NCBI GenBank assembly: GCA_030527545.1
Contig: JAUNAP010000009.1
Location: 7,185 to 71,184, forward strand
Source: Actinomycetaceae bacterium
GTDB lineage: Bacteria > Actinomycetota > Actinomycetes > Actinomycetales > Actinomycetaceae
DNA length: 64,000 nucleotides
Direction: 5' to 3'
Position 1 is the stretch's first letter. Every line of letters begins with the position of its first letter. Positions 6,876 to 49,714 of this stretch are shown piece by piece. A program made the translations under genes and the position numbers. Below the pieces are notes generated by a model, which was not told the origin of the DNA, did not search any database, and saw only the letters and a list, made by a program, of their open reading frames with translations.

Positions 6876-8948
6876 GTGCTTAGTTTCATTCACGGCTTCA
6901 AGAGGATCCTCCTCGGTCGCCCCATGCCTACTCGGGCCATGGGGAACACCCTGTTGCCTAAGCGGATTGCTCTGCCCGTTTTTGCCTCCGACGCGCTGTC
7001 GTCGGTGGCGTACGCGCCAGACGAGATTATTTTGACGCTGGGCCTCGCCGGCCTTGTAGCCTCGACGGCGTCGCTGTGGATCGGCCTGGCGGTGGTGGCG
7101 GTCCTCGTTGTCGTCGTAGCGTCCTATCGTCAAACGGTGCACGCTTACCCGTCGGGTGGGGGCGACTACGAGGTCGCCAAGCACAACCTCGGCTCTCACG
7201 CCGGCTTGGGGGTGGCCTCGGCTCTCCTCATGGATTACATCCTCACCGTCGCCGTGTCGGTGTCTTCGGGCGCTCACTATCTGACGACGGCCATGCCCGA
7301 GCTCACGGGGTATGAAACTCCCATCGCCCTCCTCGTCGTCACGATTCTCGCCGTGCTCAACCTGCGCGGAATGCGCGAGTCAGGAACGGCCTTCGCGATC
7401 CCCACCTATCTCTACATGGCCGCCATCGGCCTGCTCGCCGTTTGTGGCCTCGCCCAAGAACTGATGGGAACACTGGGCCAGGCGCCTAGCGCTGCCTACG
7501 AGTTGACCCCGGCCGCCGGCTACGACGCAGGGATCACGGGCGTGGCAGGTTTCTTCCTCCTCTTGCGCGCCTTCTCTTCGGGATGCGCGGCGCTAACCGG
7601 CGTGGAGGCCATTTCGAATGGTGTTCCGGCGTTTCGCAAACCCAAGTCGCGTAACGCCGCGGCGACGCTCGCGCTCCTGGGGATCATCTCGGCCAGTATG
7701 CTCGTCGCCATCTTGCACCTTGCCCGAGTCACGGGTGTCAAAGTCGTGGAGACGGGGTCGAAGCAGCTCCTCAAGGACGGCGTGCCCGTGGATGCGAGCA
7801 CCGATCCTGTCATCGGTCAGCTCGCCCACACGATCTTCTCCTTCTCGACGCCGCTGTTCCTCTTCGTCACCGTCGTCACGGGACTCATCTTGGTACTCGC
7901 CGCCAACACGGCATTCAACGGTTTCCCACAGCTAGCCTCCGTCCTCTCGCGCGACCACTTCTTGCCCGTCCAGCTCTATAAGCGAGGGGACCGCCTGTGC
8001 TACTCGAACGGGATCGTCGTCCTCGCCGTCGCCGCGGGCGTGCTCATCATCGTCTTCAACGCCGAGGTAACGCGGCTCATCCAGATGTACATCGTCGGTG
8101 TCTTCTTGTCCTTTACGACCTCCCAGCTGGGCATGATTCGACACTGGAACCGAGCATTGCGGGTGACGGTCGGGGTAGCCGAGCGAAACAGGATACGACG
8201 TTCGCGCGTGGTCAACATGATCGGTCTCGTCTTCACCTCCGTCATCCTCGTCATCGTCACGATCACGAAGTTCGTCCACGGTGCTTGGCTCACGCTCCTC
8301 CTCATGGCGATCGTCTTCATCCTCATGCTCGGCATTAACCGGCACTATCGCCAGTCCGCTCACCACACTGACGTTGAGGACTGGGATTCGGCGCATACGC
8401 TTCCTTCGCGCGTGCACGCCCTCGTTCTCGTGTCCAAGCTCGATCTCCCCGCTATGAGGGCGATCTCCTATGCGCGCGCAACGAACCCCTCGAGCCTCAC
8501 CCTCGTCACCGTCGACATCGACCCCGGCGACGCCGTGAAATTGCGTGAGCAGTGGCAAGAATCGGGCACCGACGTCTCGCTGACCGTGCTCGATTCGCCC
8601 TTCCGTGACATCACCGGGCCGGTCGTTACCTACGTCCGTTCCCTTCACAAGCGCTCGCCCCGAGATATGACGGTCGTCTACATCCCGTACTTCCTGCTTA
8701 AGCACTCGTGGGAGCACCTTTTGCACAATCATTCCGCGGCTCGTTTGCGCCGCGAGCTCCAGCACGTGCCCGGCGTTATCGTCGTTCTCGTTCCCTACCG
8801 CCTCCACGCGACCAGTCCCATCGAGGCGCCTGCCCCGGCAGAAAAGACCGAACCGCTGTGGTCTGGTGAAGACATGAATCGACCGAATTTCCGGCCCCTT
8901 CAGGCACGAGTTCCCGTCGTGCGTGATCAGCCCGAGGAGACGTCATGA
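6876..8948 (+). CDS. APC-family amino acid permease with a long conserved C-terminal cytoplasmic extension
   Basis: The N-terminal motif LPVFASDALSSVAYAPDEI is present, followed by about 12 TM helices and a ~200-aa tail. Confidence 0.75.
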   Translation: MLSFIHGFKRILLGRPMPTRAMGNTLLPKRIALPVFASDALSSVAYAPDEIILTLGLAGLVASTASLWIGLAVVAVLVVVVASYRQTVHAYPSGGGDYEVAKHNLGSHAGLGVASALLMDYILTVAVSVSSGAHYLTTAMPELTGYETPIALLVVTILAVLNLRGMRESGTAFAIPTYLYMAAIGLLAVCGLAQELMGTLGQAPSAAYELTPAAGYDAGITGVAGFFLLLRAFSSGCAALTGVEAISNGVPAFRKPKSRNAAATLALLGIISASMLVAILHLARVTGVKVVETGSKQLLKDGVPVDASTDPVIGQLAHTIFSFSTPLFLFVTVVTGLILVLAANTAFNGFPQLASVLSRDHFLPVQLYKRGDRLCYSNGIVVLAVAAGVLIIVFNAEVTRLIQMYIVGVFLSFTTSQLGMIRHWNRALRVTVGVAERNRIRRSRVVNMIGLVFTSVILVIVTITKFVHGAWLTLLLMAIVFILMLGINRHYRQSAHHTDVEDWDSAHTLPSRVHALVLVSKLDLPAMRAISYARATNPSSLTLVTVDIDPGDAVKLREQWQESGTDVSLTVLDSPFRDITGPVVTYVRSLHKRSPRDMTVVYIPYFLLKHSWEHLLHNHSAARLRRELQHVPGVIVVLVPYRLHATSPIEAPAPAEKTEPLWSGEDMNRPNFRPLQARVPVVRDQPEETS

Positions 8949-10165
8949 CTGAGCGAGTTCACCTCGTCAAGCCTGTCCACGGCGGCTACTGCCTGGGCTT
9001 CGGTGAGGGCGTGACCTACTTCGTGCGCCATGGCATTCCCGGAGAGGTCGTCGACATTGAGCCGACGCGTCGCCGGCGGCGCATGGTGTGGGCCGACGCT
9101 GTCGACATCGTCGAGCCGTCCGCATCGAGGAGACCGAGCGTGTGGCCGGAAGCGGGGCCGGGAGGCGTCGGCGGGGGAGAGCTCGTCCACGTTTGTCTGG
9201 AGGCTCAGCGCCGCTGGAAGGCCGATGTCGTCGCGGAGACACTGGTGCGATTAGGGCACCGCGACTTTGCCGCTGCGACTGACGGGCTCACGTGCGATGC
9301 CTGCCCAGGGGAGGACGAGCGTGGAGGGCTGGGGTGGCGAAGTCGCCTCGAGCTCACTGTCACGCCCGATGGACTCGCCGGCATGCATCGGTGGCGAGAT
9401 CAATCGGTGCAAGCCTTGGAGATGATGCCGCTCGCGCTCGGGGAGATTATCGACATGGGTCTCCTGGGGCCGGACAGCCCCTGGCGTGCGCTGTGGACAC
9501 CGGGCGAGCGCATTCGGGCCGTGCGCGGAGCGGTACGCATCGGGCAGCGATGGTACGACCGCGAGCAGCGCGCGATGGAAACGCCCCCGCGGCTGTCCTA
9601 TGAGGCAGCGGGCCTGACCTACGACGTGTCGGGGGAGGACTTTTGGCAAGCGCACGTCGAGGGCGCCGGGGTACTCGTTCGGCGCGTTCTTGCCGCCTGT
9701 GCGGATTGCGAGGGCCCGGTCCTCGAGCTGTATTGCGGCTCGGGCTTGTTTACGAGGCTGCTCGGCGAGAGGCTGGAGACGACCTCGCTGCTTGCGGTAG
9801 AAGGATCGCCGAGTGCGGCTCGCAGTGCCGGTCGGATCGTCGAGGATATCGGGGTAGGGGAGGTACTCGCAGCACGCATCGACGCGGCGGCGATCAAGGA
9901 ATGGTGTCTCGGGTGCTCCCCTGCGCTCATCGTGACGGACCCGCCACGCGCCGGCATGGGCACGCAGGCCGCACAAGCTTTGGCGGCAAGCGGCGCGCGC
10001 AGGATCGTCTACATTGCCTGCGATCCCGCCTCCCTCGCGCGTGACGGCAAGGTCCTCCTCGAAGCGGGCTACCGTATTTTGCAACTCACGTGTGACGATT
10101 TATATCCCCACACGGCTCACGTCGAGACGGTGGCGGTCTTCGATCGCAGCGAAAAAGTGGCGTAA
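8945..10165 (+). CDS. Class I SAM-dependent RNA (uracil-5-)-methyltransferase with TRAM-like N-terminus (RlmD/TrmA family)
   Basis: A TRAM-like N-terminus is followed by a methyltransferase fold (LELYCGSGLFT ... TDPPRAGMG). It overlaps the permease stop. Confidence 0.7.
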   Translation: MTERVHLVKPVHGGYCLGFGEGVTYFVRHGIPGEVVDIEPTRRRRRMVWADAVDIVEPSASRRPSVWPEAGPGGVGGGELVHVCLEAQRRWKADVVAETLVRLGHRDFAAATDGLTCDACPGEDERGGLGWRSRLELTVTPDGLAGMHRWRDQSVQALEMMPLALGEIIDMGLLGPDSPWRALWTPGERIRAVRGAVRIGQRWYDREQRAMETPPRLSYEAAGLTYDVSGEDFWQAHVEGAGVLVRRVLAACADCEGPVLELYCGSGLFTRLLGERLETTSLLAVEGSPSAARSAGRIVEDIGVGEVLAARIDAAAIKEWCLGCSPALIVTDPPRAGMGTQAAQALAASGARRIVYIACDPASLARDGKVLLEAGYRILQLTCDDLYPHTAHVETVAVFDRSEKVA

Positions 10166-32378: not shown

Positions 32379-32453
32379 CAGGGAAAAAGTGGTGGGCGGT
32401 GCGGGGATCGAACCCGCGACCTCTTCGGTGTGAACGAAGCGCTCTACCACTGA
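32379..32453 (-). tRNA. tRNA-Val (anticodon CAC), CCA encoded
   Basis: Folded by eye from GGGCGGTTGGCTCAGTGGTAGAGCGCTTCGTTCACACCGAAGAGGTCGCGGGTTCGATCCCCGCACCGCCCACCA. The cloverleaf is canonical. Confidence 0.85.
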
Positions 32454-32774
32454 GCCAACCGCCCGAGCGCAAACAACCATAGCCGATGGCGTCGCGCGAA
32501 CCAAATCGAGCGTGTCGACACCGGAGTGTGACGTAACCAGAGTGGAGGTAGCCCATCTCTTGGGGGCCGGGACGTCCCATCTCGGGCAAGAGCGAGGGGG
32601 CATCCGGTACCCCCTCTACGCCGATAGTGTGGGGCCTCACATGCGCGGCCATTTTTTCGCGCCCTTTCGCCGCAGCTTGTCGCCGGTAGGGGGTCTGTAG
32701 GTCCTACCCGATTTGTGTGGGCGCCGCTGTCTTGCTACTGTCTTATCTCGCTTGGCCGGAAACGGCAAAGACGT

Positions 32775-32847
32775 GCGGATGTAGCTCAGTTGGTAGAGCA
32801 TCACCTTGCCAAGGTGAGGGTCGCGGGTTCGAGTCTCGTCATCCGCT
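32775..32847 (+). tRNA. tRNA-Gly (anticodon GCC)
   Basis: GCGGATGTAGCTCAGTTGGTAGAGCATCACCTTGCCAAGGTGAGGGTCGCGGGTTCGAGTCTCGTCATCCGCT. Confidence 0.85.
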
Positions 32848-32848
32848 C

Positions 32849-32923
32849 GGGCGATTGGCGCAGTTTGGTTAGCGCGTTTCCTTGACACGGAAGAGGTCGC
32901 TGGTTCGAGTCCAGTATCGCCCA
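32849..32923 (+). tRNA. tRNA-Val (anticodon GAC)
   Basis: GGGCGATTGGCGCAGTTTGGTTAGCGCGTTTCCTTGACACGGAAGAGGTCGCTGGTTCGAGTCCAGTATCGCCCA. Confidence 0.85.
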
Positions 32924-32997
32924 CGATAGTGAAGAGGAGGGCGGCCCGCCGGGCCGCCCTCCTCTGTATCTCGCGTCTTATCTGACGTAATCCTCGC

Positions 32998-34578: not shown

Positions 34579-34651
34579 GCGGATGTAGCTCAGTTGGTAG
34601 AGCATCACCTTGCCAAGGTGAGGGTCGCGGGTTCGAGTCTCGTCATCCGCT
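34579..34651 (+). tRNA. tRNA-Gly (GCC), second copy
   Basis: Identical to the copy at 32775, including about 50 nt of upstream leader. Confidence 0.85.
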
Positions 34652-34685
34652 CGGAATGTGGGGGCTGGGTGCCCCTTCTTTCTTT

Positions 34686-34756
34686 GGTGGGTTGGCCGAG
34701 TGGTGAGGCAGCGGCCTGCAAAGCCGTATACACCGGTTCGAATCCGGTACCCACCT
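34686..34756 (+). tRNA. tRNA-Cys (anticodon GCA)
   Basis: GGTGGGTTGGCCGAGTGGTGAGGCAGCGGCCTGCAAAGCCGTATACACCGGTTCGAATCCGGTACCCACC. Confidence 0.8.
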
Positions 34757-34757
34757 C

Positions 34758-34832
34758 GGGCGATTGGCGCAGTTTGGTTAGCGCGTTTCCTTGACACGGA
34801 AGAGGTCGCTGGTTCGAGTCCAGTATCGCCCA
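34758..34832 (+). tRNA. tRNA-Val (GAC), second copy
   Basis: Identical to the copy at 32849. Confidence 0.85.
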
Positions 34833-35102
34833 CCACTGTATGCGGATTCCCACCCCGCATTCGCGTCCCCTCCTTCAGCGGCCTCGCGCCGCATTGCTGT
34901 CGTTTTTCTCTGTGCGCTTCGCCACGCCTAGCCCCCCGTCTTTGCCTGTGGCGAGGTCCTGGCGGGGGACGATCGCACCGACGTTGCAGTCGCGTCATGC
35001 GACACGCCTGTACACGATGAGACGAAAATGACCGAAGGGCGAGGGGAGCCGGCGCTACATTGAGGTACAAGGAACAGCACCGGAAGCAAAGGAGCAGCCA
35101 TC

Positions 35103-37427: not shown

Positions 37428-37661
37428 TCACGCGAACCCGGCGCGGGCGTGAGTAGGGACATCTCTGCTGCGGGCGGGGAGCAACGGTAGGCGGTGGGTA
37501 AAGGTCGTTCGACGATGTAGTTGTGCGCGCGAAAAGCCGACTGCGCGGGCCACGTCGTCGACACCGACGGGTTCGTGAATGTGGTCGCAGATGAACCTGA
37601 ATGCGCGAGCGACCGCAGTGTCCGAGGACACCGGCGCGCGGCACGCCCTAACCGCGGATTA
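37428..37661 (-). pseudogene. C-terminal remnant of an AraC-family HTH regulator, truncated at the boundary of the inserted element
   Basis: The minus-strand frame reads ...ICDHIHEPVGVDDVARAVGFSRAQLHRR (an AraC-type HTH helix pattern). An in-frame stop occurs exactly where the GC content drops, at about 37660. Confidence 0.4.
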
Positions 37662-37689
37662 CAAGTTCCTTGATTTGGTTGTGCCGCAC

Positions 37690-38691
37690 ATGACAGCACG
37701 CCAGTTGGTGGCAGTAGTTATGTCACTGACGGTGGTGCGGTCAAAGTATTCAGTGACACGAATGACCGCACATGATGCAGCGAGAGTACTTTATTGCAGT
37801 GACTGCAATGAAGGCACATGGATAAGTTCCTCTCTTGGCGGTGGTTTGTTTTCCAATGGTTGCGTGATTACCCGTGAGATGTATGAGTGGGAAACAGCCA
37901 TGGCTGCGCAAGGTCTGCTTGAGCGAACTATCCGTGAGCGGATTCGACTTCTGAGCTGGGCCTCTGATCGGCTCGGTGTTGATCCGATGTTCTTCACCAC
38001 CGATCAGGTCGCGCGTTTGCTTGCCGGTGTGGAGCAGCCTTGGACTCGTTATGACTATGGGTCGATTCTTCGGGTGTGGTTTGACTGGCTGGTGTTGACT
38101 GAGCGGATTGCTTCCACCCCGATGAGTCGTATGCGCGGGCCGAAACTGCCGCCCGATAATCCGCGTCCGGCTTCGCTTGAGCATTGGCATGAGGTGCTTG
38201 ATTCGCCGCTGTACCACATGACGCGTACACGCATCATGTTTGCTGCGTTTGCGGGGCTGCGGGTGAGCGAGATTGCGCAGCTACATAGCCGTGAATTTGA
38301 TCGTGAGGCAGGCACGATGCTTGTCCACTCCAAGGGCGGTAGGCGTCATGTGATCCCGGTACATCCGCTGCTTGTGGCTCGTGCGGCTCGCTATCGTGCT
38401 GGCTACTTGGTTCCTGGTGCTCATCGAAAAGGACACGTGTCGGGCAAGTCGGTCTCGGCGTCGATATCGGATGCGTTTCGCAGGCACGGCTACTCAGATA
38501 CGGCGCATCAGCTGCGTCATTTGTTCGCGACTCAACTGCTGCGTGGAGGGGTGGACTCGCGTGTGGTTCACACGCTCATGCGTCACCGCTCACTAGCGAC
38601 AACGGCTCGGTATCTGGAGGTCAATGTGGGACAGCAGCGTGAGGCTTTGAGTCTTTTGCCTTGCACACTTATCCCGCCATACATGCAGTGA
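37690..38691 (+). CDS. int: Tyrosine-type site-specific recombinase / phage integrase family
   Basis: C-terminal catalytic motifs AHQLRHLFAT and LMRHRSLATTARYLEV (R...HxxR...Y). The start was set at the first ATG inside the low-GC region. Confidence 0.75.
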   Translation: MTARQLVAVVMSLTVVRSKYSVTRMTAHDAARVLYCSDCNEGTWISSSLGGGLFSNGCVITREMYEWETAMAAQGLLERTIRERIRLLSWASDRLGVDPMFFTTDQVARLLAGVEQPWTRYDYGSILRVWFDWLVLTERIASTPMSRMRGPKLPPDNPRPASLEHWHEVLDSPLYHMTRTRIMFAAFAGLRVSEIAQLHSREFDREAGTMLVHSKGGRRHVIPVHPLLVARAARYRAGYLVPGAHRKGHVSGKSVSASISDAFRRHGYSDTAHQLRHLFATQLLRGGVDSRVVHTLMRHRSLATTARYLEVNVGQQREALSLLPCTLIPPYMQ

Positions 38692-38775
38692 CAGGTGTGC
38701 TGGCGGTGAAGGTAGTCGCCGCAATACAGGCAGTGACAGCAGGACATGCAATGACAGGGCTACATGCGGTGACAG
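38685..38775. repeat. Four direct repeats of GCRGTGACAG (iteron-like), at about 38685, 38729, 38748 and 38766. The last three are 18 bp apart
   Basis: The copies GCAGTGACAG, GCAGTGACAG, GCAATGACAG and GCGGTGACAG are visible between int and parA. Confidence 0.5.
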
Positions 38776-38815
38776 CGGTGATGTCGTGGCATGTGTTGAA
38801 AGCGGGAGGAACCAA

Positions 38816-39478
38816 ATGATGACAACTAAACGTGTACCCGTGATTGCCTTGTGCAACCAAAAGGGTGGGGTTGGAAAGACGACGACGTATCATCTCGCGC
38901 GTGCCGCGTGCCAGGCGGGGGTGCGGGTGCTGGTGGTTGACATGGATCCGCAAGGAAACGTCACTGCGGCTTTGGCGCCAGAACTTGGCGAGGATATTGA
39001 AGGTGTGGCTCACGCACTGAGTAGTGAGTGTATCGATGAGTTTGATCTGGTGCTGATTGATTGTCCTCCTAGCTTGGATCAGCTGACGGTGACTGCTCTG
39101 ACAGCAGCGAGTGGCGTGGTAGTGGTGACAGCAGCGCGGTTGTGGTCTGCGTCAGGGTGGGTGCGTTTGTCGGAAACGGTTGCTCAAGTGAAGGCGGCTT
39201 ATAACCGGGGGCTGGAGCATTTGGGGATCATCGTCAATGCGATGGAGGCTACGACGCGTACGAGGCGGCATTGGCATGAGGAATTGCGTGAGGCTGCCGA
39301 GAGCGCGGGTATGAGGTTGTTTGCGCCTGCTATCCCAAAGCGGACGCTGATCGGTGATACGGCGGAGGCGTCGTTGGGGCTCGATGAGCAAGGCGCGGTA
39401 GGGCGTGAGTTGGCCGAGATCTATACCGGCTATCTCGAAGAACTGCTTGCCGCGCGTGAGGAAGGAGAAGGTCGATGA
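38816..39478 (+). CDS. parA: ParA/Soj-family partition ATPase (orphan; no parB adjacent)
   Basis: Deviant Walker A motif LCNQKGGVGKTTT. The start is at the ATG at 38816, after a GGGAGGA RBS. Confidence 0.8.
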   Translation: MMTTKRVPVIALCNQKGGVGKTTTYHLARAACQAGVRVLVVDMDPQGNVTAALAPELGEDIEGVAHALSSECIDEFDLVLIDCPPSLDQLTVTALTAASGVVVVTAARLWSASGWVRLSETVAQVKAAYNRGLEHLGIIVNAMEATTRTRRHWHEELREAAESAGMRLFAPAIPKRTLIGDTAEASLGLDEQGAVGRELAEIYTGYLEELLAAREEGEGR

Positions 39479-39720
39479 GTAGTTGACGGTAGCTAGGGTT
39501 GAGGCCTTGCCGGTGCGAGTGGCATGCTGAGGCCATCACTCGACTGGTGGGGATGAGGGTGGGATAGATATATCCATGATGGGAGACTGGACGCCATGAT
39601 ATCGGTGTGCCATAGATACGCTTTCATCTCAGAATGTGGAACTCTCTGTACTGCTCTGTCATTGTCTCGTAGCGTTGGGTCTAGTAGAGAACGAGCTCTA
39701 CGTTGAGATTGGAGAGATGT

Positions 39721-39837
39721 ATGGGAGCGCAGCCGCAACCTAAGGGAAGCAAACCGAACGAGTCGGACTTCGTCTTGGAAGAGATCGACGATGACGTCCC
39801 TGCACTTATTCAGCAGGGGAACACATTCAAACCCTGA
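39721..39837 (+). CDS. Candidate 38-aa precursor/substrate peptide MGAQPQPKGSKPNESDFVLEEIDDDVPALIQQGNTFKP. It is not in the ORF track
   Basis: A GGAGAG RBS lies 5 nt upstream. It is on the same strand as, and 70 nt upstream of, the RRE-SagB gene. It has an acidic leader-like segment and island-like GC content. Confidence 0.35.
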   Translation: MGAQPQPKGSKPNESDFVLEEIDDDVPALIQQGNTFKP

Positions 39838-39907
39838 TGTTTGAGGCCCTGGCTCCTTGGTGCGCAATCGTCGCGTCAAGGAGCCGGAGATTAGTAGGAG
39901 GCGAAGA

Positions 39908-41008
39908 GTGAATTACAGGCTAACTAGCGAGCTAGAGCTTGTCGTGCAGTCGCCCGAGAATCACTGTCTCATTATTGGGCCCGATAGAAAGAAGACTCGT
40001 TGCGATCCGATGACCGCAGCTGTACTTCTTGCGTTGAGCTCGGGTAGCCAGTCGTTAGAATCGTTGTCTAATGTACTTTCTGGGGTATCTCGCGAAGATC
40101 TGGAAGTAAGGATATCCGGACTGCGCAAATCGGGGTTCGTAGACGAGGAAGTGGTTCCGGATGCCGATCTTGACAAGCGTGAGTCGGTCTCTCCTGACTT
40201 CGTAGGTTGGCGCGAGGCGCTGCATTATGTTAATGCGACGTGGGACTATCCCTTTGTTGACTATTCACGCGGCGGTCAGCGAGTGGACCGTAAGAGAATG
40301 AAAGCCTACGAAGGCGAGGCCGACGACGTTGTACGAAGTCTCCCGGTGAGAGGTGAGTGGACCTGCGATCTGCCGTCCGTTGAACAAGCGCTTAAGGAAC
40401 TCGGTGAGCCAACCGCTAAGTTGTCACTTCTACAGCTGCTCAAGAACGTTACAGCAGCAGCTACGCGCCCACTAGAGTACATGCCTTCGCGAACTAATGG
40501 TGCACCACACCTGCATCGGCTTGCGCCATCAGGGGGAGCTCGGCATCCGATCGAACTTTATCTTCTAGTCATTGACGTAGAGGGGATTGCACCTGGCGTG
40601 TATCACTCGAATATTTCGAGCGGTGATTTGAGGAGGATATGCAAGTTGCCTCCAGTCGAAGAACTAGAGAGGAATCTCTATGGGGCATGGCGTTTAGGAT
40701 GCAAACCGCGTGCAATATTTTTGTTGACGGCGCACGTTATGCGCAATATGTATCGTTATCGGGAGCCGCGGACATTCCGGACACTTTTCTATGATGCCGG
40801 CCATATGGGCGGACTGATCGAGGCACTGGCAAATGATTCTGCCATTGTTGCCCATGGGCATCACGGCTTCGTGGATAGTTATGCGGCGACACTCACGCAG
40901 TCGCAATCGCTTGCGAAAGAGGTGCCAACCTATCTGGTTTCCGTCGGGATCCGGGCGGAATTGGAACCCGGAACGAAGATGATTGGAAGGTCAAGACTCA
41001 AGCTATGA
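39908..41008 (+). CDS. SagB/McbC-type (TIGR03605-like) FMN dehydrogenase with an N-terminal RRE/PqqD-like winged-helix domain
   Basis: The C-terminal half carries the SagB signature PSGGARHPIELYLLV in a nitroreductase fold. The N-terminus (LLALSSGSQSLESLSNVLSGVSREDLEVRISGLRKSGFV) resembles a PqqD/RRE peptide-binding domain. The start was set at the GTG at 39908, after an AGGAGG RBS; the ORF track starts at 39857. Confidence 0.65.
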   Translation: MNYRLTSELELVVQSPENHCLIIGPDRKKTRCDPMTAAVLLALSSGSQSLESLSNVLSGVSREDLEVRISGLRKSGFVDEEVVPDADLDKRESVSPDFVGWREALHYVNATWDYPFVDYSRGGQRVDRKRMKAYEGEADDVVRSLPVRGEWTCDLPSVEQALKELGEPTAKLSLLQLLKNVTAAATRPLEYMPSRTNGAPHLHRLAPSGGARHPIELYLLVIDVEGIAPGVYHSNISSGDLRRICKLPPVEELERNLYGAWRLGCKPRAIFLLTAHVMRNMYRYREPRTFRTLFYDAGHMGGLIEALANDSAIVAHGHHGFVDSYAATLTQSQSLAKEVPTYLVSVGIRAELEPGTKMIGRSRLKL

Positions 41009-41961
41009 AACGTCTACGCGTGCATATAGGACCTTCAAGCCCAGACTCGCTTCCGCTTGCAGTTGATCTTTCGTGCGGTAAAGTGTTCCGTATTGACTCA
41101 AGAAAGCTCGCTGACCACCTTGTGGAATCTGGTGTCAACGAGGTCATGGATACGAAAGACTTCGGTGAAATCGACGATGAATACGCCAGTTGGGAAGCGA
41201 ATGGATGGGGAGAGGGGCTCTATTATTATCTCGCGTCGCAGCAGTGTTCATTCGTTGACGGAGACCCGCATACCTTTAGGCGGGCTCAGGGTGAGATTTT
41301 GCGAGAGTATGCGCGAGATGGGGGCGTGCCGCGGGAGACGCGTGAGCGCAAGAAAGGGATTCGTCTTAGGGAGAGTCAAACTACAGTTGACGGGGGCCTG
41401 CTAGACTGCCTACTTAAGAGGCGCACGACGCTCGTGCCTAAGCAAAATCATCTGGATTTCGAGCATTGCTCAGATATCCTAGTAGAAGGGTTAGCGAAAC
41501 TTGCCGAATTTCGTGCGTGGGATGCAACAGTACCGCCTGAGAACGCCCTGGTAAATTTCGGACCATCGCTTGACGTCTATGTCATTGTATATGATGAAGC
41601 GATTTGTGATCCCGGCGTTTATCGCGTATCGCTTACAGAAAAGAGCCTAATCAAGGTGAAGGCAGGCTTGTACCGTCTGGAGATGCGTACCGCGCTCGTT
41701 GGCCAACCAGCGCCCATGACCGCCGCAGTGACTGTCGTCTATGTGAGTGATATCAAACGACACTGGTGGCGATATAGACATGAGCGTGCACTTAGAGGAC
41801 TGTGGATTGATACAGCCAAGGTTGTCAACGAGCTGCTTTGGGCGCTAGCACGCCTCGGGGTAGTGCCGCACATTACTCCTGCCTTCCATGAGACATCGCT
41901 ATGTGGACTCCTGGGACTCGACCGCGGGTACCTCCCGATGTACGCGATATCTTTTGGTTAG
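41005..41961 (+). CDS. Second SagB-like nitroreductase-fold protein, translationally coupled to the first
   Basis: It has a 4-nt overlap with the upstream gene. The C-terminal pattern AAVTVVYVSD...NELLWALARLGVVPHITPAFHETSLCGLLGLD...YAISFG is typical of SagB/nitroreductase domains. Confidence 0.55.
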   Translation: MKRLRVHIGPSSPDSLPLAVDLSCGKVFRIDSRKLADHLVESGVNEVMDTKDFGEIDDEYASWEANGWGEGLYYYLASQQCSFVDGDPHTFRRAQGEILREYARDGGVPRETRERKKGIRLRESQTTVDGGLLDCLLKRRTTLVPKQNHLDFEHCSDILVEGLAKLAEFRAWDATVPPENALVNFGPSLDVYVIVYDEAICDPGVYRVSLTEKSLIKVKAGLYRLEMRTALVGQPAPMTAAVTVVYVSDIKRHWWRYRHERALRGLWIDTAKVVNELLWALARLGVVPHITPAFHETSLCGLLGLDRGYLPMYAISFG

Positions 41962-43287
41962 TTGGTGACGCTTATGGCCACAGAGGATGCGGGAGGAACG
42001 TCCCTAGGATCTAAGGTTGGTCTTGCCAGAGATGTCACAGGCTACGCGTGGCGTCTGGCATTGGGGTCGCTTCTAGGCCTCGTGTTGGGTTTTACTGACA
42101 CGCTCGTCGTTGCGAAGCACTCGACCGAGGCACTGGGCGCCGTGGCATTCGGTGCAGCGATATACGAGCTTCCAGCAAACGTCTTGATGGGGGCTCTGAT
42201 AGCGCACAGGATCCTAGCGCCGGCGACATACCGTGATAAACACGGAGACGGGCTCCTCAATATAACGCTACCCCTGCTTGGGGGTGGCATGTGCTTCATT
42301 GCGATCGTAACAGCTGTCGGGGAATGGTTCCCTAATATCAGCGGTTGGATCGGGAGTGAAGCGATTCGATATCTGGCATATCGCTCCCCTGCGTTGTTGT
42401 TCGAAGTAGCCATGGCGGCATTGACCATCAGTCTCCTGGTTCGTGGAGTCAAACGTGCGCCAGTGGTATGTTCGGCAGTGGTCGTTATCGTAAATGTTCT
42501 CCTCGACATAGTCTTCGTTAATGGGTATATGGGATTCGGCCCAAATGGGGCAGCTGGAGCGGGCTTGGCCAGCAGTGTGAGCTCTGTGCTTGGGGCTGCC
42601 CTGCTCGCAGTCTGGCTGGTTCGTGTTGCTGGCTGGTCCATCACTAACTTTCATAGGAGTGATGGAACATATGCCGGCTGGTTACGATTGAGTTGGCCTG
42701 CTTGCCTATCCGCGGTACTTGATTATGGTGGGGCGCTATTGTTTGTCGAGCTCGTCCGCTTAGTTGGCGACGACAGCCTAGCTGGCTTACGTCTAGGTCT
42801 TCAGTTTCATATGATGCTGTTTATAGTCATCTCGTCGTTGTCAAACGCGTCTCTAAATGTATTGGGAAGCAAGCGGTCTAATGACGCACGCGATCTTGCT
42901 GTATTGATAGCTGAGGTTAAGCCACTCTTCCGCGCATGTGTTCTCGTCTGTGCGGTTGCTGCTGTCCCGATCATATTCGCTATCCAAGGAATATTTCGTC
43001 TCGATAGTGCTGTGTTCGAGTCTGCCGTGCTGATGGTCGTCGCTGTGGCTATCTCCGCGCCTTTCGCTGGTTATGCTTATCTTGCTGTTACTGAGCTCCG
43101 ACTGTTGCGTAATACGAAGATTGAGATGTTCGGCAATGTGCTAGCGACATGGTGTATCCAATTGCCCTTTGCTTATATGATGGCTAAATTAGGGTGGGGT
43201 AATATGGTTTTCTTTGGCCTCGTAGGTTACTGGATCTTCAGGATGGCGTACTATCGTGTTGCGCTCCAAAGATACTATCGGTTGTGA
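41962..43287 (+). CDS. MATE/MOP-superfamily multi-pass membrane exporter
   Basis: About 12 TM helices and a composition consistent with the MATE family. The start could be at TTG 41962, GTG 41965 or ATG 41974. Confidence 0.55.
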   Translation: MVTLMATEDAGGTSLGSKVGLARDVTGYAWRLALGSLLGLVLGFTDTLVVAKHSTEALGAVAFGAAIYELPANVLMGALIAHRILAPATYRDKHGDGLLNITLPLLGGGMCFIAIVTAVGEWFPNISGWIGSEAIRYLAYRSPALLFEVAMAALTISLLVRGVKRAPVVCSAVVVIVNVLLDIVFVNGYMGFGPNGAAGAGLASSVSSVLGAALLAVWLVRVAGWSITNFHRSDGTYAGWLRLSWPACLSAVLDYGGALLFVELVRLVGDDSLAGLRLGLQFHMMLFIVISSLSNASLNVLGSKRSNDARDLAVLIAEVKPLFRACVLVCAVAAVPIIFAIQGIFRLDSAVFESAVLMVVAVAISAPFAGYAYLAVTELRLLRNTKIEMFGNVLATWCIQLPFAYMMAKLGWGNMVFFGLVGYWIFRMAYYRVALQRYYRL

Positions 43288-43297
43288 CAGGAGCGGT

Positions 43298-44263
43298 ATG
43301 ATGCAGGATGTTGGGGGACACTTAGTCTTCGGAGAGTGGTGGGGGTTTCCTCGGCATCCATTCGGATTGGGAGCTGTTTCGGATAGTAGTGAAATGCTCT
43401 ATATCGAACTTCTTTATGCACTCAAAGGTCCCTCCGTAGAACCGCTACTCCCGTTCAGTAGTGGATTAGGTGCGCGTTGCAAAGATGGCGATGACATTTG
43501 TGAGCGAATTATCTGTATGTATGAAAGCCTCCTAGGCGACTTGAAGAGTGTGGCGTCAGTGATCGGTGACGATCCAGAGAAATATTTTGCAGCATTCGAT
43601 TCGCGGTGGGCTGTCAGTGGTATGGATGTCGCAACGCTCGTCGATTATGTGTGTGATCGGCTCAAAGAGCATGCGGTGCCGCAAACCCGTCGACTACTCG
43701 CTGCTGTGTGTGGCGTGCCTTATCCAGTCTCTTTGAGAGAGTGGATAGATCTGGCTATGTACCCTGCTTTGCCTGCACATATTGCGCCGCAGATCTGGGT
43801 GCGGCCTCCGACGGGCGCTGCGGAGTTGCCCTGTGATTGGTCTGTTAGGTCCGTTGTCGCGGTGTGCCATGAGGTTGTTGGACACTTATTTCAACACAGG
43901 TTACTTCAAGGTAATATTTCACGCCACGCATCACTCGATCGCGAGTTGATGGAAGGCTGGGCAATCTACGCGGAGGGTGTTCTTCGCGGGCTTGGTGAGC
44001 TTGAAATGGCTGCGGTCACGTTATGGGAGGCCAAGAGGCTATGCCCTCTTGCGGCAGAGGTATTGGGCGCTGAGCTCGCAGAGGACTTTTTTCGAAGGAT
44101 GCGGTTGGCACTCCCGACGTATTGTTCGGCACCAGAACTTACGTTCTTCCGTCGAACGACACGTAGGCACGCAAGAGGTTACTTGCGGCTTGTTACTGAA
44201 TTTGAGATTGATCGATCAGTAAATTTGCTCCAAAATTACTTGTACTTCAACCCCTGGCGATAA
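43298..44263 (+). CDS. Putative zinc metallopeptidase (HExxH motif HEVVGH with a downstream Glu in MEGWAIYAE)
   Basis: Gluzincin-like HExxH...E arrangement. The start was set at the ATG at 43298, which follows an AGGAGCGG RBS and the MATE stop. Confidence 0.45.
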   Translation: MMQDVGGHLVFGEWWGFPRHPFGLGAVSDSSEMLYIELLYALKGPSVEPLLPFSSGLGARCKDGDDICERIICMYESLLGDLKSVASVIGDDPEKYFAAFDSRWAVSGMDVATLVDYVCDRLKEHAVPQTRRLLAAVCGVPYPVSLREWIDLAMYPALPAHIAPQIWVRPPTGAAELPCDWSVRSVVAVCHEVVGHLFQHRLLQGNISRHASLDRELMEGWAIYAEGVLRGLGELEMAAVTLWEAKRLCPLAAEVLGAELAEDFFRRMRLALPTYCSAPELTFFRRTTRRHARGYLRLVTEFEIDRSVNLLQNYLYFNPWR

Positions 44264-44592: not shown

Positions 44593-46143
44593 ATGTCGAT
44601 TGGGAGGACACGGCGTAGAGCCGTGGCAAAGGTGACTGCTGGCGTGGCTGTCGTAGGGGTTATTGCCTCAGGAATGGTCGGGGTGGGAGCTACCCCGGCT
44701 GAGGCTGTGACGATTTATCGGGCCGCTGACCCGGGCTACGCCCTGCCCTGGAATGGCCACTACACGTGGCTTGGTGCCTACAACAACCCGGCAGGCTCGG
44801 GCTTGTCGTGGCGTACCGAGATTGACGCTAGCGCGCCTGGCCCAAACAACGTGGTCTCTACCTACGAGATCACCGGCAACTCCAACATGATGCAACTGGG
44901 TGGAGAAGATGTCATGATCCACTCCTCTGCGCAGATGCGGTGGATCCTCGACACCTATCAGAAGACTGCCACGGCAGACTCTAGGGCCACTATCGCTGTG
45001 ATCGTCCACCTCAACTACGACGCGACGAGTGCCGACTCGTGGGGCAAGTACTGGGGGTATGGTCCGGTCGCGCTACCCGGCCGTTGCCAAGCTTGTGCGT
45101 GATTACGTCTACCAGGCCAAGGGGAATGCGCCATGGCAGGGTGCTGCGCCTAAGGCCAAGACGGAGAACAAGCGCATTGGCGATGTTCACAACATCGGTG
45201 TTCAGAATCAGGGCGGCGGGTGGATCGCTGGTAGCCCGGCCACGGTCATGGTCACGCTCGATGATCCTGCGATGTTCGATGAGACCGGCAACATCACGTG
45301 GTCGGGTAACACGCAGAACCAACCGCTTAGTCTCAAGTGGCATTCCACGGGTAACGGCAAGGATACGTTCACGATGCGTTTCAACCAGGCCTATTGGGTG
45401 AACAAGATCCAGTCCAGCCCTTGTAAGCAGGACTTGATCTACCGGTGGGTGACCCGCGTGAGGTCACGGTGCCGGGTAACCCGGTCGATGTGGTCATGGA
45501 TTTCCAGCCCCAAGCGGTGTCGAACGTGGGCACGGCGAAGGTCGTGGACAAGACCGTGAAGGTTCTCAATGACACGATCAGCGTGTCTGCTGATAGCGGT
45601 ACGCAGTGGATCGATGGGGTCAAGGTGAAGTTCACCGGTATCGCGTATTATGCGGGTACGAAGCTTCCTGCCGAGTCCAAGGACGTGCCGAAGGATGCTG
45701 TGAAGGTTGGGACGGTTGAGATTACAGCGGATACGCCGGGTGATTACCCGGCAACGCTGAAGCTGGACAAGCCGGTGAAGCCCGGGTTTGTGACCTGGGT
45801 GTGGAAGATGGATAAGGCCGCCCAAGATGCTTCCGTGAAGGAATACATCAAGGGTGACTGGTCGGATTCTTATGGTCTTGCCGCTGAAACAACGTCGGTG
45901 CGTGAGCAAGCCAAGATCACCGCGAACGCTAGCGTGTCTGAGGATGCTAAGGCGGGCAGCTGGAAGTTATTGGATGCGGTAACGGCCAAGCGAGCGAGCA
46001 TCTGTTCGGCATGGGCCCTGGTAAAACCGCCCTGGCAGGCCGGGCCGACGACGACGAGCGGTTCGGTTGGGGTGACCTCGACGAGAGCGCCGTCCCCCAG
46101 CGAGCGGAGCAGCTCTCCTTCGGGAAGCGCTGCGGCAACATAG
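44593..46143 (+). pseudogene. Frameshifted gene for a secreted protein with a Tat-like signal (MSIGRTRRRAVAKVTAGVAVVGVIASG...). The reading frame moves 1 to 2 to 1 across ORFs 44533..45102, 45029..45559 and 45445..46143
   Basis: Three overlapping ORFs with coherent protein-like sequence in different frames. The 3' end runs into the high-GC host remnant. Confidence 0.45.
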
Positions 46144-47719: not shown

Positions 47720-49714
47720 ATGAGTGTGCGCACAGTATCGATCGATGGCAGCCCCCGCGAGATTGAGGCGGGCACCACCGGCGCGCAACTGTTCGCCGAG
47801 ATGGACGGCGTCTGTGCGATGAGCATCAACGGGGAGGCATGGGATCTGTGCCGCGAGATTCCCGACGGCGCGAACGTCTCTGCGATCCTCCTCGACTCGC
47901 CCGAGGGACTGCAGATCCTGCGTCACTCGTGCACGCACGTGATGGCGCAGGCTGTCCAGCAGCTGTATCCGGACGTCAATCTCGGGATCGGCCCCTTCAT
48001 CGAGGACGGCTTCTACTACGATTTCGGCAACATCGAGGCGATCACGCCGCAGATCCTTAAGCAGATCGAAAAGAGGATGAAGCGGATCGTCAAGGAAGGC
48101 CAGGCATTCCGCCGTCGGACGGTCACGGCGGAGGAAGCGCGCGCCGAACTCGCTGATCAGCCTTACAAACTCGAGCTCATCGATACGAAGGGGGCCGGCG
48201 CCGATGGGGCCTCGGTCGAGGTTGGCGCAGGCGAACTCACGATCTACGACAATGTCACCCGTTCCGGTGACGTTGCCTGGAAGGACCTATGCCGCGGCCC
48301 CCACCTGCCGACGACGAAATGGATCGGAAAGGGATTCGCGCTGACGAAGTCGTCGGCCGCCTACTGGAAGGGCGACCAGAATAACGACAATATGCAGCGT
48401 ATCTACGGCACGGCCTGGGCGAGCAAGGAGGATCTCGAGGCCTATCAGACGAGGATGCGCGAGGCCGAGCGCCGTGACCACCGTAAGCTCGGGACCCAGC
48501 TCGATCTGTTCTCCTTCCCCGACGAGATCGGTTCGGGGCTGCCGGTGTTCCACCCCAAGGGTGCGATCGTGCGCCAGGAGATGGAAAACTACTCGCGCAC
48601 CCGCCATATCGAGGCCGGCTATCAGTTTGTCTATACCCCCCACATCACCAAGGGCGACCTGTTTTCGACCTCGGGTCACCTCGACTGGTATCGCGATGGA
48701 ATGTTCCCGGCGATGCACGTTGACGAGGAGCGAGGCGAGGACGGCGATGTAGTCAAGCCTGGTCAGGACTACTACCTCAAGCCGATGAACTGCCCCATGC
48801 ACAACCTCGTTTTTTCCTCGCGCGGACGTTCCTACCGGGAACTGCCGCTGAGGCTGTTCGAGTTCGGGACCGTGTATCGCTACGAGAAGTCAGGAGTCAT
48901 TCACGGACTGACGCGTGCGCGCGGGTTCACGCAAGATGATTCCCACATCTATTGCACTCGCGAGCAAATGCGTGACGAACTCGCGAGCCTGCTCACCTTC
49001 GTTCTCGACCTTTTGCGCGACTACGGGCTCGACGATTTCTACCTCGAACTGTCGACAAAGAATCCGAAGAAGTTCGTCGGCGACGACGACGTGTGGGAGG
49101 AAGCGACCCGCACCCTCGCCGAGGTTGCCGACGCCTCAGGTCTCGAACTCGTTCCCGACCCCGAGGGTGCGGCTTTCTATGGACCCAAGATTTCGGTCCA
49201 GGCCCGCGACGCCATCGGGCGCACCTGGCAGATGTCGACAATTCAGCTCGATTTCAACCTGCCTGAGCGTTTCGATCTCGAATACACGGCCGAGGACGGG
49301 TCCCGTCAGCGTCCCGTCATGATCCACCGTGCGCTCTTTGGCTCGATCGAGCGGTTCTTCGGCGTCCTCACCGAGCATTACGCGGGCGCCTTCCCCGCGT
49401 GGCTGGCGCCCGTTCAGGTGCGCTGCATTCCCGTGGCCGACGCCTTCAACGGCTACCTAGAAGACATCGCCGCCAAGTTGGGCGCCGAAGGGATCCGAGT
49501 GGAGGTTGATCGCTCCGCGGACCGTTTCGGCAAGAAGATCCGCAACGCTGCCACCGAGAAGATCCCGTTCGTTCTCATCGCCGGCGGCGAGGATGCCGAG
49601 GCCAACGCCGTATCCTTCCGCTACCGCGACGGACGCCAGGACAACGGCGTCGCTATCGACGAGGCAATCTCGCGCATCGTCGAGGCGGTGAGGAGCCGCT
49701 CGAATGATTTCTGA
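47720..49714 (+). CDS. thrS: Threonine--tRNA ligase
   Basis: TGS and editing domains ([10 protein letters not shown]), class II motifs and an anticodon-binding domain. Confidence 0.92.

Follow-up and report, generated by a model that had tools for sequence, protein, structure and literature searches.

A probable tiarin-type precursor gene at the head of a five-gene operon with TfxB- and TfxC-like enzymes in an uncultured Actinomycetaceae bacterium

Gene content and signals of the locus

The window analysed here, the whole 64,000-nucleotide stretch of DNA, contains a 38-codon ORF that heads a tightly packed, co-directional operon; a tfxB-like gene, a tfxC-like gene, a gene for a MATE-family exporter and a gene for an HExxGH protein follow it (Table 1). 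The ORF encodes MGAQPQPKGSKPNESDFVLEEIDDDVPALIQQGNTFKP. The ribosome-binding site that the initial annotation had assigned to it, GGAGAG, was recovered by direct reading, and the 5-nt spacer was corrected to 4 nt (ATGT), a trivial discrepancy; the equivalent site in a close relative, the 95-97% identical locus L003, is GGAGGG at the same distance. The ORF and the next gene had also been described as co-oriented and 70 nt apart, and the distance from the precursor stop to GTG 39908 is exactly 70 nt. Databases are consistent with the earlier statement that the ORF is unannotated: the exact 38-aa peptide was found only as Logan metagenome gene calls, from 4 independent metagenome assemblies. Exact-sequence look-up identified the neighbouring ThrRS as MDO4613930.1 and PepC as MDO4613929.1, both of an Actinomycetaceae MAG. 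Pfam and NCBIfam scans of the 38-aa peptide gave no match, and no second copy of the precursor motif was present in the six frames of the whole window.

Table 1. Features of the precursor gene, its operon and the adjacent upstream segment (positions in the window).
Feature	Position	Strand	Remarks
Tyrosine integrase gene	37579-38691		Upstream of the cluster
ParA-like ATPase gene	38786-39478		Upstream of the cluster
Shine-Dalgarno sequence of the precursor gene	39711-39716	+	GGAGAG
tfxA-like precursor peptide gene (probable)	39721-39837	+	38 aa; ATG at 39721, TGA at 39835-39837, stop included
Leader motif D16-D25	39766-39795	+	DFVLEEIDDD, with Φ-x-Φ-E-E-Φ (F17-I22); "motif 1" of the tiarin preprint
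P27-A-L-I-Q-Q-G-N34 block	39799-39822	+	Gln31, "motif 2"; Ile30, predicted specificity residue
Hypervariable C-terminal tail	39823-39834	+	TFKP; 2-5 residues in relatives
Stable stem-loop in the precursor–tfxB-like spacer	39849-39887	+	76-nt spacer, -29.2 kcal/mol, z = -2.6
tfxB-like gene	39908-41008	+	366 aa; RRE-like N-domain and SagB/ThcOx-type FMN dehydrogenase domain
tfxC-like gene	41005-41961	+	318 aa; nitroreductase/SagB superfamily; 4-nt overlap with the tfxB-like gene
MATE-family exporter gene	41962-43287	+	TfxD position; Pfam MatE and TIGR00797; likely start 41974
HExxGH…E gluzincin-type metallopeptidase gene (predicted)	43298-44263	+	321 aa; putative DUF885-like fold; clade-specific

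The most likely start of the tfxB-like gene is GTG 39908, which AGGAGG precedes at 39896-39901; its mechanical ORF opens earlier, at TTG 39857. The RRE-like part of the product covers approximately residues 1-81, encoded by 39908-40150. In BLASTP searches against the proteins of the tfx locus (L012), the best match of the tfxB-like protein was TfxB (E 2.5e-19, versus 8e-3 for TfxC), and that of the tfxC-like protein was TfxC (E 1.3e-23 over 270 aa, versus 8e-4 for TfxB), each cross-match being weaker than the cognate match by a factor of at least 10^15; the similarity is limited to the flavoprotein domains, with 27-38% identity. With family models, the tfxC-like protein scored 26.5 bits on Pfam Nitroreductase, above the cutoff. 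On TIGR03605 (SagB domain), the tfxB-like protein reached E 7e-14 and 51.6 bits against a curated cutoff of 78.4, and the tfxC-like protein E 9e-8; on TIGR04511 (SagB_rel_DH_2), the tfxB-like protein scored 53.1 bits against a cutoff of 240. The tfxC-like protein scored 39.1 and 31.8 bits on TIGR04511 and TIGR03605, respectively, under both curated cutoffs. The segments SPSGGxRHPxExY and RNMYRYREPRT are invariant in 25 tfxB-like homologues.

An AlphaFold2 model of the TfxB-like protein, built from a 25-sequence alignment, had a pLDDT of 79.9. Its residues 1-81 are predicted to form β-strands followed by three helices (pLDDT 65-89), and the nitroreductase fold comes after them. When the N-domain was compared with known structures using Foldseek, the matches were TbiB1, a lasso-peptide RRE in complex with its leader (5v1v, target TM 0.71), and the N-domains of LynD and MccB, and the full-length model matched ThcOx best (1e-12), followed by BmdC and McbC. 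Because the N-domain matches TbiB1, LynD and MccB and the remainder ThcOx, BmdC and McbC, the reading of this gene as an RRE-SagB fusion, proposed in the initial annotation from the appearance of its N-terminus, is supported at the level of the predicted fold.

In all relatives, too, a MATE gene stands at this point of the operon, and the MATE protein is presumed, by analogy with TfxD, to export the product of the cluster and to contribute to self-protection. The HExxGH protein is a candidate leader or tail peptidase or, alternatively, a candidate immunity enzyme. Its family is very narrow, as an exhaustive HMMER search of 1.84 billion proteins found 11 representatives at 50% clustering. A word-indexed protein search with the HExxGH protein returned only the identical sequence, and a profile search of PDB sequences with the HExxGH alignment gave nothing meaningful. 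The family evolves faster than its neighbours in the operon, with 25-35% identity versus 40-46% for the TfxB-like enzymes.

A tblastn search of the 64-kb window with all Tfx proteins found only the TfxB/TfxC-like genes and no homologue of YcaO (TfxE), TfxF, TfxG or GNAT (TfxH). Similarly, Pfam and NCBIfam searches identified no YcaO among the operon proteins, and none was present at the syntenic loci. No associated immunity gene of the GNAT, IleRS or second-aaRS type was found in the operon, the adjacent ORFs or the window. By analogy, the MATE pump alone may suffice for self-protection.

The stem-loop between the precursor stop and the tfxB-like gene has counterparts elsewhere. In L003 the stem carries a compensatory G>A/C>T pair, and in 9 of the 10 other loci, tfxA-tfxB among them, a hairpin whose sequence is unrelated comes after the stop codon of the precursor gene. 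These GC-rich hairpins (L012 9130-9197, L001, L002, L005, L007-L009 and L011) have z values of -1.4 to -6.5; the exception is L004, where the start codon of the tfxB-like gene is possibly mis-called. A simple scan for promoter and terminator consensus sequences around the precursor ORF found neither, and the hairpin lacks a U-tract. It probably acts as a partial terminator or as an mRNA stabiliser that sets the ratio of precursor to enzyme. A post-precursor hairpin that keeps the precursor mRNA in excess is the usual arrangement in RiPP operons, such as those of lantibiotics and microcin C, and a terminator hairpin follows the precursor gene in the mcc operon.

GC content is approximately 0.53 across 39.5-44.3 kb versus approximately 0.62 in the flanks. 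The segment that contains the integrase and ParA-like genes (37499-39481) is replaced in the ~97% identical L003 (2392-3220) by an unrelated 829-bp segment holding a 211-aa gene of no known family, and both flanks align at 97%. The difference in GC content, together with this replacement, suggests that the cluster is an island that was acquired horizontally long ago and whose mobile edge still varies.

Several other features of the surroundings were recorded. At 44593-45559, a secreted-protein gene (signal peptide MSIGRTRRRAVAKVTAGVAVVG…) is split into overlapping ORFs of 189 aa and 176 aa; its counterpart in L003 is a single 319-aa ORF (8333-9292), and no Pfam match was obtained. The split is a frameshift, a pseudogene or an assembly error. 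The ThrRS gene (47720-49714) lies 3.4 kb downstream of the cluster, at the same position as in L003, and is followed by HIT-family and lipid-synthesis genes; it is most likely a housekeeping copy and a coincidental neighbour. As a candidate for a resistant aaRS of the cluster it was rejected, given the housekeeping context that it shares with L003, the absence of a nearby aaRS gene from the other clade loci and the lack of Thr-Gln in the precursor. Farther upstream, two sets of tRNA genes, Gly(GCC)-Val(GAC) at 32775-32924 and Gly(GCC)-Cys(GCA)-Val(GAC) at 34579-34835, flank a minus-strand gene for an MFS-type transporter, and a tRNA-Val(CAC) gene is located at 32390-32464.

Conservation of the small ORF across Actinomycetota

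Homologues of the downstream enzyme (48 proteins) were fetched, and the surrounding DNA was taken for ten distinct loci in Actinomycetota. The initial annotation had pointed to conservation of the small ORF upstream of RRE-SagB homologues as a check to make, and such an ORF was present at every fetched locus: in 10 of the 10, a small co-oriented ORF with the same motif lies directly upstream of the tfxB-like homologue, across TfxB-like enzymes with identities from 95% down to 37%. The upstream peptides include MTENNSAELVLEEITEPAPALIQQGNIVC in Leifsonia/Diaminobutyricibacter, …DEFFIEDIDDETPALIQQGNVYTSR in Actinomyces bowdenii, …VELVLEEITEETPALIQQGNRLGC in Nanchangia, …VELTLEEITEETPALIQQGNRMN in Kocuria and …EVLLEELEAEAPALIQMGNVMR in Leucobacter. 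Two metagenomic loci encode MDEQNDGLVIEEIEDAAPALIQQGNIRL and …EELVIEEIETPSPALIQQGNFF, and a Pseudonocardiaceae MAG, whose enzyme is only 37% identical, encodes …DFSLEDVEGPEEALKQQGDAVDM. At the metagenomic locus L011, gene calling gives one 548-aa product with a MatE match after the tfxB-like gene (7116-8762) and lists no separate tfxC-like gene; a fusion, a deletion or an error of gene calling may explain this.

The motif common to the peptides of this clade is Φ-x-Φ-E-E-Φ…(P)AL-I-Q-Q-G-N. In the alignment of the clade precursors, E20, A28, L29, Q31 and G33 are invariant (Q31 in 10 of 10 peptides) and the positions flanking E20 are conserved, while P27, I30, Q32 and N34 are kept in at least 90% of the sequences. 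Such conservation is absent from the N-terminus and from the last 2-5 residues, the tails being TFKP, ALKP, IVC, VMR, VYTSR, RLGC, RMN, IRL, FF and AVDM. Comparison of the precursor gene with that of L003 revealed 3 synonymous and 5 non-synonymous differences, and none of the 5 replacements lies within the conserved blocks, D16-D24 and V26-N34. Because ORFs with the motif occur at every fetched locus, the changes relative to L003 avoid the conserved blocks and the motif is unique in the window, a chance ORF is excluded on sequence grounds, and 39721-39837 is a real, conserved gene.

Relationship to trifolitoxin and the tiarins

Tiarins were described by Travin et al. in December 2025 as a family of 79 clusters containing TfxB and TfxC, defined by homologues of the two lying within 2.7 kb of each other (bioRxiv 10.64898/2025.12.02.691738). 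Trifolitoxin (TFX) is a Trojan-horse inhibitor of ArgRS derived from the 42-aa TfxA. Downstream of tfxA lie the genes for TfxB and TfxC, homologues of FMN-dependent dehydrogenases that contain RRE domains, and for the MATE protein TfxD, which by itself confers TFX resistance (bioRxiv 10.64898/2025.12.02.691738). The structure of the TFX fluorophore is in dispute, and the functions given to TfxB and TfxC are proposals; among tiarin precursors, a weak leader motif of aliphatic and acidic residues recurs together with a conserved Gln close to the C-terminus (bioRxiv 10.64898/2025.12.02.691738). A GNAT gene or a resistant aaRS copy is frequent in tiarin clusters, although not universal.

In the window, the TfxB and TfxC homologues are adjacent and overlap by 4 nt. 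The precursors predicted in Supplementary Data 1 of the same study include the peptides of four of our loci, L001, L004, L007 and L008, with …PALIQ(Q/M)GN… (bioRxiv 10.64898/2025.12.02.691738): the L001 peptide is identical to the Diaminobutyricibacter tongyongensis entry, and L004, L007 and L008 correspond to Leucobacter komagatae, Nanchangia anserum and Kocuria indica, respectively. The Nanchangia operon is given there as [quoted passage not shown] (bioRxiv 10.64898/2025.12.02.691738), and this five-gene layout is that of the operon in the window. AL-x-Q is common to the window peptide and 23 of the 65 other listed tiarin precursors, and in precursors of other phyla, those of Bacillus (DFKIEEISEMPMALRQQ…), Lactococcus (LLFEEVEDFDIALEQGC…) and Pelagibius, Φ-x-Φ-E-E-Φ likewise stands 11 residues before AL-x-Q.

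The proposal of the initial annotation that the ORF encodes a precursor peptide is thus borne out by comparison: its position and sequence are kept upstream of TfxB/TfxC-type pairs, tfxA takes the same place in L012, and four sister peptides are listed tiarin precursors. The acidic amphipathic segment that had been likened to a RiPP leader matches motif 1 of the tiarins. That earlier reading had missed both the link to trifolitoxin and the fact that the acidic stretch and "ALIQ" are the two motifs of the family. We therefore identify 39721-39837, from sequence and gene order, as a probable tiarin-type precursor gene equivalent to tfxA, with a probability of roughly 85%. Its proper place is in the Actinomycetota "ALIQQGN" tiarin clade, as a member not annotated before and not as a new kind of system. 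What is new here is the trifolitoxin link, the TfxB/TfxC correspondence, the conserved hairpin, the predicted zinc-peptidase fold of the fifth gene and the minimal tiarin cluster.

The closest known systems are the "ALIQ(Q/M)GN" tiarins of D. tongyongensis, N. anserum, K. indica and L. komagatae, which have the same order of precursor, TfxB-like, TfxC-like, MATE and fifth protein. They share LVLEEI…PALIQQGN followed by a short variable tail, and their TfxB-like proteins are 40-46% identical to that of the window. The window differs from them in its host, an uncultured Actinomycetaceae MAG outside the RefSeq-based set of the preprint, in the longer Pro/Lys-rich N-terminus of its leader (MGAQPQPKGSKPNES) and the tail TFKP, and in the integrase/ParA segment immediately upstream of the cluster. 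The fifth gene, "not_found" in the preprint, is here predicted from its modelled fold to encode a DUF885-like gluzincin peptidase.

Trifolitoxin itself (tfxABCDEFG plus tfxH, Rhizobium anhuiense T24) is alike in having a precursor gene with its own hairpin before a TfxB-TfxC pair and then an exporter, and in the conserved Gln near the C-terminus of the precursor; its TfxB and TfxC correspond one-to-one to the pair in the window, in unchanged order. In contrast to it, the window has no homologue of TfxE (YcaO), TfxF, TfxG or TfxH (GNAT) and has an added metallopeptidase gene; its core contains no Cys and carries Ile, not Arg, before the Gln; its leader is acidic, whereas that of trifolitoxin is Lys-rich; and its MATE protein has no BLAST-detectable similarity to TfxD. 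A tblastn search of the plasmid collection with TfxA gave no match. The SagB/McbC/ThcOx oxidases share the flavin-dependent nitroreductase-superfamily fold and, in ThcOx, an N-terminal fusion of the RRE type; unlike those systems, the window has no cyclodehydratase partner and no azoline-forming residues, and its scores fall under the family thresholds. A resemblance in predicted logic exists to microcin C, a Trojan-horse AspRS inhibitor: the cell takes up a short ribosomal peptide, and aminopeptidases cut it down to a warhead against an aaRS, an analogy already drawn for tiarins (bioRxiv 10.64898/2025.12.02.691738). Microcin C differs in being a peptidyl-adenylate made via the ThiF-like MccB with other enzymes, and there is no sequence relationship.

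Alternative readings, proposed mechanism and target

That the enzymes match TIGR03605 (E 7e-14 and 9e-8) and that their best structural matches are the azoline oxidases ThcOx, BmdC and McbC would also suit a canonical azole/azoline (TOMM/LAP) precursor, with the SagB-like enzymes serving as azoline dehydrogenases and a cyclodehydratase encoded elsewhere in the genome. This reading is barely credible, however: a YcaO/E1-like gene is absent from the operon, the 64-kb window and all syntenic loci, the conserved PALIQQGN contains no Cys, Ser or Thr, T35 is not conserved, and the SagB score lies far under the curated cutoff (51.6 versus 78.4 bits). We rejected it on the lack of a YcaO gene and of a Cys/Ser/Thr core. 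The same observations agree with the expectation in the initial annotation that any modification would be non-canonical, as neither the operon nor the window encodes a YcaO protein or cyclodehydratase and the peptide has no conserved Cys, Ser or Thr; the modification proposed for tiarins is a Gln-derived fluorophore and not azoles. Alternatively, the ORF could encode a conserved small protein that is not a substrate: a peptide, regulatory or of the leader type, that controls expression of the genes after it, or else a chaperone or small subunit for the flavoproteins. In favour of this, the hairpin after the ORF in nearly all loci could in principle form part of a translation-coupled attenuator. 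Against this very unlikely possibility, it is the amino-acid sequence itself that is conserved, with invariant residues near the C-terminus, beyond the presence or length of an ORF; in trifolitoxin it is TfxA, an experimentally established precursor, that has the homologous position and motifs; and the next gene is predicted to encode an RRE-type peptide-binding domain.

Within the tiarin-type reading, the target depends on which Gln is modified. Where tiarin clusters encode an aaRS, its specificity agrees with the residue in front of the conserved Gln, a rule validated experimentally only for Arg/ArgRS (bioRxiv 10.64898/2025.12.02.691738). One I-Q cluster, that of Actinokineospora (precursor …VWIQANN), includes an IleS gene. 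From Ile30-Gln31 and this rule, the product of the window is predicted to be an IleRS inhibitor, a target assignment by analogy to which we give even odds. The backing for a target that tiarin clusters usually offer, a GNAT gene or a second aaRS gene, was not found in the operon or in the rest of the window. If Gln32 were modified instead, Gln31 would be the specificity residue and the target would be GlnRS, or GluRS/GatCAB-dependent formation of Gln-tRNA. The TFX fluorophore takes in Arg6-Gln7-Gly8 (RQGC), and the invariant G33 of the clade directly follows Q32 (IQQGN), which favours this assignment; yet Q32 is replaced by Met in Leucobacter komagatae (…ALIQMGN…), Q31 is invariant, and in many tiarin precursors the conserved Gln is not followed by Gly (ALHQHH, ALIQYR and VWIQANN, the last being IleS-linked). 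We consider modification of Gln32 unlikely.

Taking Gln31 as the modified residue and Ile30 as the specificity residue, the following pathway is proposed. The 38-aa peptide would be made from its own strong ribosome-binding site, and the hairpin after the stop, to judge from the structures conserved across loci, would keep the precursor message above the enzyme message. DFVLEEIDDD, the presumed docking site, would be bound by the predicted RRE domain of the TfxB-like, and possibly of the TfxC-like, flavoprotein. The TfxB/TfxC pair may then turn Gln31 and the neighbouring backbone into a Gln-derived heterocyclic fluorophore, a conversion that is a proposal even for trifolitoxin. With no YcaO gene in the cluster and no Cys in the peptide, no thiazoline is expected in the product. 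The DUF885-like zinc peptidase may trim the leader, the variable C-terminal tail or both, and the MATE pump, on the analogy of resistance conferred by TfxD, would export the product and protect the producer. A target cell would import the peptide, and its aminopeptidases would trim it to a warhead starting at Ile30 that, by extrapolation from the specificity rule, would inhibit isoleucyl-tRNA synthetase.

More speculatively, the clade could represent a minimal tiarin, in which TfxB and TfxC alone build an Ile-Gln warhead without YcaO or extra dehydrogenases, yielding an IleRS inhibitor of host-associated or uncultured Actinomycetaceae, with the DUF885-like zinc peptidase as the missing leader/tail peptidase or as an immunity enzyme that destroys the warhead. 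Taken as a whole, this proposal is tentative and rather doubtful.

For annotation, the analysis adds a real 38-codon gene that is absent from the deposited annotation of the MAG, and assigns the "hypothetical" fifth gene, by its predicted fold, to the putative zinc peptidases. If the peptidase reading is true, it would provide the first biochemical role for a DUF885-like fold. Tiarins are proposed to direct one Gln-derived scaffold against different aminoacyl-tRNA synthetases, a single residue setting the target, and only the Arg/ArgRS case, trifolitoxin, has been tested. Few systems may be simpler for reconstituting the chemistry of TfxB and TfxC than a five-gene cluster without YcaO or extra dehydrogenases, and the cluster in the window would be suited to testing, for IleRS, the rule that the residue before the Gln names the target.
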